Assembly: GCF_003790525.1 (NCBI RefSeq)
Contig: NZ_CP033635.1
DNA length: 64,000 bases
Origin: Escherichia coli
GTDB taxonomy: Bacteria; Pseudomonadota; Gammaproteobacteria; Enterobacterales; Enterobacteriaceae
Reading direction: 5' to 3' (one strand)
Part shown: piece after piece, positions 13,711 through 48,038 of the stretch
How positions within the stretch are numbered: position 1 is the stretch's first letter
Layout of the letters: each line of letters starts with the position of its first letter
Notes under the pieces: generated by a model
Seen by the model: the letters and a program-made list of their open reading frames with translations, nothing else
Databases searched by the model: none
Told to the model about the DNA's origin: nothing
Translations under genes and position numbers: made by a program

Positions 13711-15136
13711 TAATGCCGATCAGTTAAGGATCAGTTGACCGATCCAGTGGCTGTGTAAGAATCCGGAAACGCTCACTTGTTTCCGGATTTTTTTATGCAC
13801 ATTGGACAGGCTCTTGATCTGGTATCCCGTTACGATTCTCTGCGTAACCCACTGACTTCTCTGGGGGATTACCTCGACCCCGAACTCATCTCTCGTTGCC
13901 TTGCCGAATCAGGTACTGTAACGCTACGCAAGCGCCGTCTTCCCCTCGAAATGATGGTCTGGTGTATTGTTGGCATGGCGCTTGAGCGTAAAGAACCTCT
14001 TCACCAGATTGTGAATCGCCTGGACATCATGCTGCCGGGCAATCGCCCCTTCGTTGCCCCCAGTGCCGTTATTCAGGTCCGCCAGCGCCTGGGAAGTGAG
14101 GCTGTCCGCCGCGTGTTCACGAAAACAGCGCAGCTCTGGCATAACGCCACGCCGCATCCGCACTGGTGCGGCCTGACCCTGCTGGCCATCGATGGTGTGT
14201 TCTGGCGCACACCGGATACACCAGAGAACGATGCAGCCTTCCCCCGCCAGACACATGCCGGGAACCCGGCGCTCTACCCGCAGGTCAAAATGGTCTGCCA
14301 GATGGAACTGACCAGCCATCTGCTGACGGCTGCAGCCTTCGGCACGATGAAGAACAGCGAAAATGAGCTTGCTGAGCAACTTATAGAACAAACCGGCGAT
14401 AACACTCTGACGTTAATGGATAAAGGTTATTACTCACTGGGACTGTTAAATGCCTGGAGCCTGGCGGGAGAACACCGCCACTGGATGATACCTATCAGAA
14501 AGGGAGCGCAATATGAAGAGAGCAGAAAACTGGGTAAAGGCGATCATCTGGTGAAGCTGAAAACCAGCCCGCAGGCACGAAAAAAGTGGCCGGGACTGGG
14601 AAATGAAGTGACAGCCCGCCTGCTGACCGTGACGCGCAAAGGAAAAGTCTGCCATCTGCTGACGTCGATGACGGACGCCATGCGCTTCCCCGGAGGAGAA
14701 ATGGCGGATCTGTACAGTCATCGCTGGGAAATCGAACTGGGATACAGGGAGATAAAACAGACGATGCAACTGAGCAGGCTGACGCTGAGAAGTAAAAAAC
14801 CGGAGCTTGTGGAGCAAGAGCTGTGGGGTGTCTTACTGGCTTATAATCTGGTGAGATATCAGATGATTAAAATGGCGGAATATCTGAAAGGTTACTGGCC
14901 GAATCAACTGAGTTTCTCAGAATCATGTGGAATGGTGATGAGAATGCTGATGACATTGCAGGGCGCTTCACCGGGACGTATACCGGAGCTGATGCGCGAT
15001 CTTGCAAGTATGGGACAACTTGTGAAATTACCGACAAGAAGGGAAAGGGCCTTCCCGAGAGTGGTAAAGGAGAGGCCCTGGAAATACCCCACAGCCCCGA
15101 AAAAGAGCCAGTCAGTTGCTTAACTGACTGGCATTA
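13711..15136 (+). mobile_element. Insertion sequence IS4, complete copy
   Basis: Exactly 1426 bp; imperfect terminal inverted repeats TAATGCCGATCAGTTAAGG (left) and GCTTAACTGACTGGCATTA (right); single intact transposase ORF; flanked by a perfect 13-bp direct repeat. Confidence 0.93.
13795..15123 (+). CDS. insG: IS4 transposase
   Basis: Track ORF 13777..15123; start trimmed to [20 protein letters not shown] (442 aa), recognised as the IS4 transposase; no frameshift or internal stop. Confidence 0.93.
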
Positions 15137-18671: not shown

Positions 18672-18700
18672 CTCTTCGGGATTTTTATTCCGAAGTTTGT
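18672..18700 (+). terminator. rpsA 3-prime hairpin (terminator/attenuator before ihfB)
   Basis: CTTCGG-GATTTTTATT-CCGAAG followed by TTTGTTG, 10 bp after the rpsA stop. Confidence 0.55.
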
Positions 18701-18822
18701 TGAGTTTACTTGACAGATTGCAGGTTTCGTCCTGTAATCAAGCACTAAGGGCGGCTACGGCCGCCCTTAATCAATGCAGCAACAGCAGCCGCTTAATTTG
18801 CCTTTAAGGAACCGGAGGAATC

Positions 18823-43957: not shown

Positions 43958-45160
43958 TTAACTGGCTTTTTTAATATGCGGAAGGTCGAATGCTTTGCGC
44001 AGTGCCCGAACAAACGCTTTATCGTGGCAGATAGTTTTGCCAGGGCTGTCAGAAAGTTTCGCCACCGGTTTACCGTTACACTCAACCAACTTAATGACAA
44101 TATTCAGGGGTTTTACCTGGGGGATATCGCAGGTCAGGCGAGTCCCAATACCAAAACTTAATTGCACGCGGGAAGAGAAATGGCGGTATAGCTCAACCGC
44201 TTTGCGTAAATCCAGATTGTCAGAGAAAACCAGCGTTTTACTCTGTGGATCAATTCCCAGCTTCTCATAATGTGCAATGGCTTTTTCACCCCATTCAACC
44301 GGGTCGCCAGAGTCATGACGCAGGCCCTGATAGCGACTGGCGAACTCGACACCGAAATCACGCAGGAAAGCATCCATAGTGATGCAGTCGGTTAATGCAA
44401 TGCCAAGTTGGTCGGGATACTCTTCCAGCCAGGCAGCAAGTGCAGCTCGCTGGCTGTTGGCTAGATCCGGGCTGATTTGCTGATGCGCCTGGAACCATTC
44501 GTGTGCCTGTGTTCCCATCGGCGTGAGGGAAAGCCGGCGCGCCAGATCATAGTTGCTGGTGCCCACGAACCAGGATTCCTGTTGCAGACGCTTAACGATG
44601 GTTTCTTGTACTTCGCGAGAAAAACGGCGGCGGGTGCCAAAATCCATCAGATGGAAGCGCGACATATCAAGACCGGCGGTTAATGCCGAGAAGTCGACTA
44701 ATTTGCTTTCCAGCGTGTCGAGGGCTTGCGCAACGTCGGTCTGCGGTGAGCGATAGCGATGTACCATTTCACTGATAACCGCCAGCAAAGGAACTTCCCA
44801 GAGGATGACTTCACGCCACGGGCCGCTTAAACGAATATCCAGCTTGCCATTATCGTTGGATACGGTGACTTGTTCCGGGTTAAAGCGGAACTCGCGTAAC
44901 CAGTTAAGATAGTCGGCCTGAAAGAAAGGCAGGGCAGAGAGCCACTGATATTCATCATCCTGCAGGCGCAGGTGCTGCATCGCCTGAACCTGTTCACGAA
45001 TAGCATCGGCATAAATACCCAGCAGATCGTCACCTCGGCAACGAAACTCCGCCGCGACATGCACATCGTAATAGTGATGAAACACGGCTTGCTGCATATG
45101 CAACTTATAAGCATCTGTATCCAGCAACGAGTGCAGAACAGGAGAAGCGAATTGTGTCAT
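43958..45160 (-). CDS. pncB: Nicotinate phosphoribosyltransferase
   Basis: Track ORF 43958..45208; start trimmed to [24 protein letters not shown] (400 aa). Confidence 0.95.
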
Positions 45161-45189
45161 AGGTGCGCAGTAGCGTCCTCGTACAGGAG

Positions 45190-45207
45190 CGTTTAGTACA
45201 ATAAACA
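45190..45207. promoter_or_regulatory. Palindrome resembling a NadR operator upstream of pncB
   Basis: CGTTTAGTACAATAAACA: inverted half-sites GTTTA/TAAAC resembling the NadR box TGTTTA...TAAACA, 30-47 bp upstream of the pncB ATG; spacing versus consensus not verified. Confidence 0.4.
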
Positions 45208-45425
45208 TCTTCAGGAACTGCTGGAGTATACCTTGTTTCGCAATTTATTGAACCCCGATCACACCATATGCCACCTTTCTGGTCGATGGCATTACGCGGT
45301 GTATGTTATAAAAATGTAGCAATAAAGGCGTTTGTACCTGAAAAGATGAAGATTCTGCATAGCGCGATTTACGCAACAGGAATAGACTGAACACCAGACT
45401 CTATAAAAGATGCTAAAGGTTATTT

Positions 45426-48038
45426 ATGACTCAACAGCCACAAGCCAAATACCGTCACGATTATCGTGCGCCGGATTACCAGATTACTGATATTGACTTG
45501 ACCTTTGACCTGGACGCGCAAAAGACGGTCGTTACCGCGGTCAGCCAGGCTGTCCGTCATGGTGCATCAGATGCTCCGCTTCGTCTTGATGGCGAAGATC
45601 TTAAACTGGTTTCTGTTCATATTAATGATGAGCCGTGGACCGCCTGGAAAGAAGAAGAGGGCGCACTGGTCATCAGTAATTTGCCGGAGCGTTTTACGCT
45701 TAAGATCGTTAATGAAATTAGCCCGGCGACGAATACCGCGCTGGAAGGGCTTTATCAGTCAGGCGATGCGCTTTGCACCCAGTGTGAAGCCGAAGGTTTC
45801 CGCCATATTACGTATTATCTCGACCGCCCGGACGTGCTGGCGCGTTTTACCACCAAAATTATTGCCGATAAAACCCAATATCCCTTCCTGCTTTCCAACG
45901 GTAACCGCGTTGCGCAAGGCGAACTGGAAAACGGACGTCACTGGGTACAGTGGCAGGACCCGTTCCCTAAACCGTGCTACCTGTTTGCGCTGGTGGCAGG
46001 CGACTTCGACGTGCTGCGCGACACCTTCACCACGCGTTCTGGTCGCGAAGTTGCGCTGGAGCTGTACGTCGATCGCGGCAACCTTGATCGTGCGCCGTGG
46101 GCGATGACCTCGCTGAAAAACTCCATGAAATGGGATGAAGAGCGCTTCGGCCTGGAGTATGACCTCGACATCTATATGATCGTCGCGGTGGATTTCTTCA
46201 ATATGGGCGCAATGGAGAATAAGGGTCTGAATATCTTTAACTCCAAATATGTGCTGGCCCGCACCGATACCGCCACCGACAAAGATTACCTCGATATTGA
46301 ACGCGTTATCGGCCATGAATATTTCCATAACTGGACCGGTAACCGAGTGACCTGCCGCGACTGGTTCCAGCTCAGCCTGAAAGAAGGTTTAACCGTCTTC
46401 CGCGATCAGGAGTTCAGCTCTGACCTTGGTTCTCGCGCGGTAAACCGTATCAACAACGTGCGCACCATGCGCGGATTGCAGTTTGCGGAAGACGCCAGCC
46501 CGATGGCGCACCCGATCCGCCCGGATATGGTCATTGAGATGAACAACTTCTACACCCTGACCGTTTACGAGAAGGGCGCGGAAGTCATTCGCATGATCCA
46601 CACCCTGCTGGGCGAAGAAAACTTCCAGAAAGGGATGCAGCTCTATTTCGAGCGCCATGATGGCAGCGCGGCAACCTGCGACGACTTTGTTCAGGCGATG
46701 GAAGATGCGTCGAATGTCGATCTCTCTCATTTCCGCCGTTGGTACAGCCAGTCCGGTACGCCGGTTGTGACCGTCAAAGACGACTATAATCCGGAAACCG
46801 AGCAGTACACCCTGACCATCAGCCAGCGTACGCCTGCTACGCCGGATCAGGCAGAAAAACAGCCGCTGCATATTCCGTTTGCCATCGAACTGTATGACAA
46901 CGAAGGCAAAGTGATCCCGTTGCAAAAAGGCGGTCATCCGGTGAATTCGGTGCTGAACGTCACCCAGGCGGAACAGACCTTTGTCTTTGATAATGTCTAC
47001 TTTCAGCCGGTGCCTGCGCTGCTGTGCGAATTCTCTGCGCCAGTGAAACTGGAATATAAGTGGAGCGATCAGCAACTGACCTTCCTGATGCGCCATGCGC
47101 GTAATGATTTCTCCCGCTGGGATGCGGCGCAAAGCCTGCTGGCAACCTACATCAAGCTAAACGTCGCCCGTCATCAGCAAGGGCAGCCGCTGTCTCTGCC
47201 GGTGCATGTGGCTGACGCTTTCCGCGCGGTGCTGCTCGATGAGAAGATTGATCCGGCGCTGGCGGCAGAAATCCTGACGCTGCCTTCTGTCAATGAAATG
47301 GCTGAACTGTTCGATATCATCGACCCGATTGCTATTGCCGAAGTACGCGAAGCACTCACTCGTACTCTGGCGACTGAACTGGCGGATGAGCTGCTGGCTA
47401 TTTACAACGCGAATTACCAGAGCGAGTACCGTGTTGAGCATGAAGATATTGCGAAACGCACTCTGCGTAATGCCTGCCTGCGCTTCCTTGCTTTTGGTGA
47501 AACGCATCTGGCTGACGTGCTGGTGAGCAAGCAGTTCCACGAAGCGAACAATATGACCGATGCGCTGGCGGCGCTTTCTGCGGCGGTTGCCGCACAACTG
47601 CCATGCCGTGATGCGCTGATGCAGGAATACGACGATAAGTGGCATCTGGACGGTCTGGTGATGGATAAATGGTTTATCCTGCAAGCCACCAGCCCGGCGG
47701 CGAATGTGCTGGAGACGGTGCGCGGTCTGTTGCAGCATCGCTCATTTACCATGAGCAACCCGAACCGCATTCGTTCGTTGATTGGCGCGTTTGCGGGCAG
47801 CAACCCGGCAGCGTTCCATGCCGAAGATGGCAGCGGTTATCAGTTCCTTGTGGAAATGCTTACCGACCTCAACAGCCGTAACCCGCAGGTGGCATCGCGC
47901 CTGATTGAGCCGCTGATTCGCCTGAAACGTTACGATGCCAAACGTCAGGAGAAAATGCGCGCGGCGCTGGAGCAGTTGAAAGGGCTGGAAAATCTCTCTG
48001 GCGATCTGTACGAGAAGATCACCAAAGCACTGGCTTGA
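45426..48038 (+). CDS. pepN: Aminopeptidase N (M1 family)
   Basis: 870-aa ORF; GAMEN motif (FNMGAMENKG) and zinc-binding HEXXH (HEYFHNWTGN). Confidence 0.97.
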   Translation: MTQQPQAKYRHDYRAPDYQITDIDLTFDLDAQKTVVTAVSQAVRHGASDAPLRLDGEDLKLVSVHINDEPWTAWKEEEGALVISNLPERFTLKIVNEISPATNTALEGLYQSGDALCTQCEAEGFRHITYYLDRPDVLARFTTKIIADKTQYPFLLSNGNRVAQGELENGRHWVQWQDPFPKPCYLFALVAGDFDVLRDTFTTRSGREVALELYVDRGNLDRAPWAMTSLKNSMKWDEERFGLEYDLDIYMIVAVDFFNMGAMENKGLNIFNSKYVLARTDTATDKDYLDIERVIGHEYFHNWTGNRVTCRDWFQLSLKEGLTVFRDQEFSSDLGSRAVNRINNVRTMRGLQFAEDASPMAHPIRPDMVIEMNNFYTLTVYEKGAEVIRMIHTLLGEENFQKGMQLYFERHDGSAATCDDFVQAMEDASNVDLSHFRRWYSQSGTPVVTVKDDYNPETEQYTLTISQRTPATPDQAEKQPLHIPFAIELYDNEGKVIPLQKGGHPVNSVLNVTQAEQTFVFDNVYFQPVPALLCEFSAPVKLEYKWSDQQLTFLMRHARNDFSRWDAAQSLLATYIKLNVARHQQGQPLSLPVHVADAFRAVLLDEKIDPALAAEILTLPSVNEMAELFDIIDPIAIAEVREALTRTLATELADELLAIYNANYQSEYRVEHEDIAKRTLRNACLRFLAFGETHLADVLVSKQFHEANNMTDALAALSAAVAAQLPCRDALMQEYDDKWHLDGLVMDKWFILQATSPAANVLETVRGLLQHRSFTMSNPNRIRSLIGAFAGSNPAAFHAEDGSGYQFLVEMLTDLNSRNPQVASRLIEPLIRLKRYDAKRQEKMRAALEQLKGLENLSGDLYEKITKALA

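Follow-up and report, generated by a model that had tools for sequence, protein, structure and literature searches.

The 64-kb stretch of DNA analyzed in this study (referred to as the window) is part of an Escherichia coli chromosome. Over its whole length it is 99.94-99.997% identical to strain SMS-3-5, and several complete genomes match the 1 kb around the site described below at 100% identity. An IS4-family transposase gene is present at about 13777-15123 (+), between ycaL and aroA, as in SMS-3-5. The genes pncB and pepN are separated by an intergenic region of 265 bp, which contains the 18-bp sequence CGTTTAGTACAATAAACA (45190-45207 on the + strand; TGTTTA-TTGTAC-TAAACG, i.e. 6+6+6, on the sense strand of pncB). 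A previous interpretation of this DNA, made from the letters alone (the sequence-only reading), had reported this sequence at these positions, 30-47 bp upstream of the pncB start codon and flanked by pncB and pepN. Re-reading of the window confirmed the sequence; the distance is correct for the pncB ATG at 45160 on the minus strand, and the RefSeq annotation of E. coli genomes with 100% identity in this region agrees on both neighbors. The same 18-mer occurs in strain K-12 at 990386-990403. The features of the locus are listed in Table 1.

Table 1. Features of the pncB-pepN intergenic region and its flanks (window coordinates)
Feature	Position	Strand	Basis or remarks
pncB CDS, nicotinate phosphoribosyltransferase	43958..45160	-	RefSeq annotation of 100%-identical genomes
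pncB 5'UTR, 58 nt	45161..45218	-	TSS map; includes the box and the conserved element AAACGCTCC-N5-GAGGA-N14/15-ATG
Probable NadR operator (NAD box)	45190..45207	-	Half-sites 45207-45202 and 45195-45190
-10 hexamer TACAAT (-13 to -8) of the distal pepN-directed promoter	45197..45202	+	Sequence; inside the NadR box
Distal pepN-directed TSS	45210	+	Kim 2012 and Cappable-seq; 216 nt upstream of the pepN ATG
pncB TSS (G)	45218	-	Kim et al. 2012, supplementary TSS table (PMC3415461)
pncB -10 hexamer TATACT (-12 to -7)	45225..45230	-	Sequence; position fits the TSS
Probable pncB -35 hexamer TTCAAT, 3/6 match, 16-bp spacer	45247..45252	-	Sequence and TSS; conserved
pepN CDS	45426..48038	+	RefSeq annotation

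The operator consensus of NadR is an 18-bp palindrome, TGTTTA-N6-TAAACA, to which NadR binds as a dimer, NAD being the co-repressor (PMC2330245, PMC2330246). The pncB box agrees with it at 11 of the 12 specified bases, the sole deviation being a terminal G for A, and its spacer is exactly 6 bp long. The sequence-only reading had considered the spacer shorter than that of the consensus; this was a mistake, as the actual spacer is the canonical N6 (PMC2330245, PMC2330246). The pncB box is the only sequence in the window that matches the consensus with one mismatch or none (0.12 such matches are expected by chance), and for the intergenic region alone the chance expectation is about 5e-4. Sequences with two mismatches were found five times versus 2.4 expected, so that only the stringent match (one mismatch at most) is informative.

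The window was also scanned, as had been suggested together with the sequence-only reading, with a position weight matrix. The matrix was symmetrised and built from the nadA, nadB and published Proteus niaP sites, with pncB left out. At each of three pseudocount settings the pncB site ranked first of about 64,000 positions, with a score of 15.9-17.9 bits (z about 5; matrix from only three sites). The sites used for training reached 24-32 bits, compared with 16-18 bits for pncB, when scored against themselves, and since the matrix is built on three sites the absolute scores mean little. The runner-up, TGTTGAGTTTACTTGACA, located at 18698-18715 (+) in the rpsA-ihfB intergenic region, was rejected as a NadR site; it has TTGACA and is probably promoter-related or a chance match.

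The NadR boxes of nadA and nadB in strain K-12 are TGTTTAGCATATAAAACA and TGTTTAGTAAATTAAACA, respectively. The layout of the pncB box is that of the nadA-pnuC and nadB operators of E. coli and Salmonella (18 bp, TGTTTA-N6-TAAACA), and it shares with the nadA and nadB boxes the extended half-site TGTTTAGTA (+ strand; GTA after TGTTTA). Organism, regulator and logic are also the same as for nadA-pnuC and nadB, with genes of NAD synthesis and salvage being switched off at high NAD. There are two differences in the sites themselves: (i) the pncB box ends in G, unlike the NadR consensus, which ends in A, and (ii) only one box is present at pncB, as opposed to two at nadB, of which one is perfect and the other has two mismatches.

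In order to place the box relative to the promoters, we used published maps of transcription start sites, given in version-2 coordinates of the K-12 genome; the offset to NC_000913.3 (+777) was fixed from the coordinates of the pncB CDS. The pncB start was mapped to 989637 (-), with 180 reads, a 58-nt 5'UTR and an upstream sequence ending ...GGTATACTCCAGCAG (PMC3415461). The box therefore extends from +12 to +29 of the mapped start, i.e. it lies in the promoter region of a NAD salvage gene. In the same dataset, the nadA box occupies positions -54 to -37 (nadA start supported by 5 reads), unlike the pncB box, so that the place from which NadR acts evidently varies between promoters.

We compared the pncB loci of 80 Enterobacteriaceae species (330 kb in total), whose PncB proteins are 82-98% identical. 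The -10 hexamer of pncB was found to be conserved in 80/80 species, including those that lack the box (see below), and the probable -35 hexamer belongs to a conserved block, TGTGATC...TTCAATAAA. Directly upstream of the -35 hexamer there is another conserved block, ATGGTGTGATCGGGG (45253-45265, minus strand), with a TGTGA motif at -45 to -41, which, judged from its sequence, might be a half-site for a CRP-like activator. A CRP site at TGTGATCGGGGTTCAA, upstream of the -35 hexamer, is not claimed: the second half-site is poor and the center, at about -37.5, is non-canonical. A strict consensus scan of 45100-45480 for promoters and terminators returned no matches; both mapped promoters of the pncB-pepN region have weak -35 hexamers, so that such a scan is uninformative here.

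The leader of pncB contains a block, AAACGCTCC-N5-GAGGA-(T/C)GC...GCGCACC-ATG (45161-45195, minus strand; about 1455-1500 in loci L005-L084 of the comparative set), which is present in 80/80 species with or without the box. GAGGA, 14-15 nt from the ATG and thus unusually distant, is the sole Shine-Dalgarno-like sequence of the leader, with no clear one closer. No convincing hairpin or covariation was found in this block.

Since the box is transcribed (+12 to +29), the palindrome might conceivably fold into an A/U-rich stem of 6 bp and work as an RNA hairpin in the 5'UTR of pncB, affecting translation or stability. We give this explanation very little credence. A stretch of 79 nt, composed of the 58-nt leader and the first 21 nt of the CDS, folds no better than its shuffled versions (z = -0.05), the box forms no hairpin in either the MFE or the centroid structure and is unpaired in the latter, and the half-sites are invariant, without compensatory changes. 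Moreover, the same motif at nadA lies upstream of the start site, where it is not transcribed. An Rfam search of the pncB strand gave no match. A cis-regulatory RNA element in the pncB 5'UTR was therefore rejected, there being no stable fold, no covariation and no Rfam family on this strand.

The box is highly conserved. Of 5426 complete E. coli genomes, 5423 have an unchanged 30-mer centered on it, while the kilobase around it is only 95-99% identical in 3711 of the set. Among the 80 Enterobacteriaceae species, a box with one mismatch at most is present in 54, at -46/-47 to -29/-30 from the pncB ATG, and this orthologous position accounts for 54 of the 56 such matches in the 330 kb of loci. 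In these 54 species plus the window, 16 of the 18 columns of the box are invariant, both half-sites included, and the mean major-allele frequency is 0.991. The corresponding values are 0.775 for the 17-bp linker between the -10 hexamer and the box (20 alignment columns) and 0.648 for the third-codon positions of pncB, whose best run of 18 does not exceed 0.822. The N6 spacer, at 0.973, is more conserved than would be expected of a free spacer. The species were chosen for carrying the box, and the invariance of the half-sites is thus partly a matter of construction; the conservation of position and spacer is not.

These data also bear on the possibility that the sequence is a functionless A/T-rich palindrome that arose by chance, or that it encodes part of an N-terminal extension of PncB starting from the in-frame ATG at 45208-45206, both of which we consider negligible. 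The chance expectation of 0.12 matches for the whole window is above zero, but the conservation of the box is far over neutral, with nearly all matches in the orthologous loci at the pncB position, and this excludes a chance origin. As for the extension, a mechanical ORF call does reach the in-frame ATG in the box, yielding 416 aa instead of 400, and this ATG (45206-45208, minus strand) is present in the pncB mRNA at +11 to +13. However, it lacks conservation (consensus ...AGTTGTTTA), in 20 species a leader shortened by 1 nt between the box and the start codon puts it out of frame, and the RefSeq annotation is that of a 400-aa PncB.

Judged by its sequence and conservation, the 18-bp palindrome is very probably the NadR operator of pncB. 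The resemblance of the half-sites to this operator, which had been proposed tentatively, is borne out by the 11 of 12 consensus positions, the canonical spacing, the first rank in the matrix scan and the conservation. As far as can be told, 45190-45207 is the published and curated NadR site of pncB, an identity that we infer. We presume that the inverted repeat was noted in the original papers on the pncB sequence and that the site is present in curated regulon databases. A full-text literature search for four operator sequences returned no match.

The box is missing in 26/80 species, including Klebsiella, Raoultella, Trabulsiella, Atlantibacter, Mangrovibacter, Franconibacter, Siccibacter, Superficieibacter and Pseudescherichia, which means that control by NadR is not a universal property of pncB. 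Such a scattered occurrence fits what has been published, namely that pncB is under NadR control "in several enterobacterial genomes" (PMC5343134). The species without the box retain the core promoter of pncB and the downstream 5'UTR block GGAAACGCTCC-N5-GAGGA...ATG. The AAACG end of the right half-site lies within this 5'UTR element, which is kept where there is no box, and part of the conservation of the box must therefore have another cause. Overlap with this older conserved element is, from the sequences compared, a plausible reason for the lasting presence of the non-consensus G in place of A.

Enterobacter sp. Ag1 (locus L077) has no orthologous box. Approx. 120 bp upstream of its pncB promoter, which is the same conserved one, it carries a perfect box, TGTTTAGTACTCTAAACA. 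This relocation is a case of binding-site turnover, which argues for the function of the box. Four Raoultella/Klebsiella loci (L049, L053, L054 and L056) and that of Trabulsiella guamensis (L040) likewise have no orthologous box and contain TGTTCAATATATTAAACT, with two mismatches, at -137 to -157 from the pncB ATG; it may represent a weak NadR site that has been relocated, or else no more than the A/T-rich promoter region of pepN.

The box also contains an element of a second promoter. The same four pepN-directed starts appear in two independent datasets, Kim 2012 (PMC3415461) and Cappable-seq of Ettwiller et al. 2016 (PMC4782308), at version-2 positions 989629, 989738, 989814 and 989845, which correspond to 45210, 45319, 45395 and 45426 of the window. 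The first of them, 989629 (+), was assigned to pepN with 5 reads in the former dataset (PMC3415461) and has a score of 39.4 in the latter (PMC4782308), where the four starts, in the same order, score 39.4, 59.9, 70.1 and 21.2 (PMC4782308). About 20% of the pepN-directed Cappable-seq signal thus belongs to the start at 45210. This start lies 3 nt past the box, which occupies -20 to -3 relative to it, and TACAAT provides a -10-like hexamer at the proper distance (6-8 nt upstream of the mapped 5' end). No recognizable -35 hexamer was found for the 45210 start, either by reading of the sequence or by the consensus scan.

The pepN leader at 45328-45455 (+) gave a weak match below threshold, over the full length of the model, to RF02779, the PepN 5'UTR thermometer (score 21.3 bits, gathering score 83; E = 0.18). 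In both TSS datasets one start coincides with the first base, A, of the pepN start codon (45426, +; 7 reads, Cappable-seq score 21.2), and it would give a leaderless pepN mRNA beside three leadered ones.

It could be argued that the element serves mainly as the -10 region of the pepN-directed promoter and that its likeness to a NadR box is incidental. The primary 5' end at 45210 in both datasets and the correctly placed TACAAT speak for this, as does the conservation of the nominally free spacer. Nevertheless, we regard it as highly unlikely. The twelve bases of the half-sites, most of them outside the hexamer, are invariant, and the motif is common to the unlinked nadA and nadB operators; the 45210 promoter has no -35 hexamer that could be recognized; and in locus L077 the box, though relocated, remains with pncB. 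TAnnnT is general in NadR boxes (nadA, nadB, niaP), which makes a -10-like hexamer a by-product of the motif. The roles of promoter and operator are, moreover, not mutually exclusive. With the box taken as the NadR operator of pncB, the 45210 start may itself be a by-product of the A/T-rich operator, given that NadR boxes in general contain TAnnnT, and it may help to explain the high conservation of the spacer.

The leftward start of pncB (45218) and the rightward start at 45210 cross, with an overlap of 9 nt, so that each promoter lies in the transcribed region of the other. Face-to-face divergent promoters sharing one operator are a class known from the older literature on divergent promoters. 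As in this class, the footprints of the polymerases directed toward pncB and pepN overlap and one repressor site is located within both promoters; unlike in this class, NadR control of the 45210 start is putative, this start being one of four for pepN and having no clear -35 hexamer. That the single NadR box serves both face-to-face promoters, with NadR occluding TACAAT besides repressing pncB, is a tentative proposal that we consider somewhat doubtful. Our literature search found no link of NadR to E. coli pepN and no description of the face-to-face arrangement.

In Salmonella Typhimurium LT2, about 50 genes lie between pncB (STM1004) and pepN (STM1057) (PMC10794520). The pairing of the pncB and pepN promoters is therefore not universal. 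The separation in LT2 is consistent with the insertion of a prophage, presumably Gifsy-2, in the intergenic region.

The NadR protein of strain K-12 comprises an HTH_3 domain (residues 7-59), a CTP_transf_like domain (NMN-adenylyltransferase, nucleotidyltransferase) and an AAA_28 kinase domain. Its gene, located outside the window, was found at the species level in 5424 of 5426 complete E. coli genomes. pncB is listed among the NadR-repressed genes (PMC12421817, PMC2330245) and in several enterobacteria it is counted as a member of the NadR regulon (PMC5343134). Together with the consensus match and the conservation, this upholds the claim of the sequence-only reading that pncB is subject to NAD-responsive repression (PMC12421817, PMC2330245, PMC5343134). 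DNA binding by NadR is promoted by NAD and inhibited by c-di-GMP, and ATP releases the protein (PMC12421817). A literature search for NadR in combination with ChIP-exo found nothing. The iModulon papers naming NadR were set aside, as their NadR/BirA iModulon comes from a decomposition of B. subtilis, not E. coli.

The following sequence of events can be proposed. At high NAD levels, the trifunctional NadR would sit as a dimer, with NAD as the co-repressor, on TGTTTA and TAAACG via its N-terminal HTH domains. Bound at +12 to +29, it would be inside the downstream footprint of RNA polymerase, where it would block open-complex formation or promoter escape, and less nicotinate phosphoribosyltransferase would be made. 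When NAD falls, ATP-bound NadR would leave the DNA and pncB would be derepressed. Given the position of the box inside the polymerase footprint, a steric clash with RNA polymerase that prevents open-complex formation, or a block of promoter escape, is the most likely mode of action.

The NadR operator of pncB is a textbook element that was already known, and the finding is real but ordinary. Its importance beyond annotation is little: it confirms a classic operator and settles the doubt about the spacing. The transcription start data, in turn, fix the geometry of this operator: relative to the start, it is downstream at pncB but upstream at nadA. Conceivably, NadR might act as well on the pepN-directed start whose -10 hexamer is part of the box. 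If this were true, some of the transcription of aminopeptidase N would depend on the NAD status, and the pncB and pepN promoters would also be in competition for RNA polymerase. Across the Enterobacteriaceae, NadR control of pncB is patchy, with the box in 54 of the 80 species and one relocated site.
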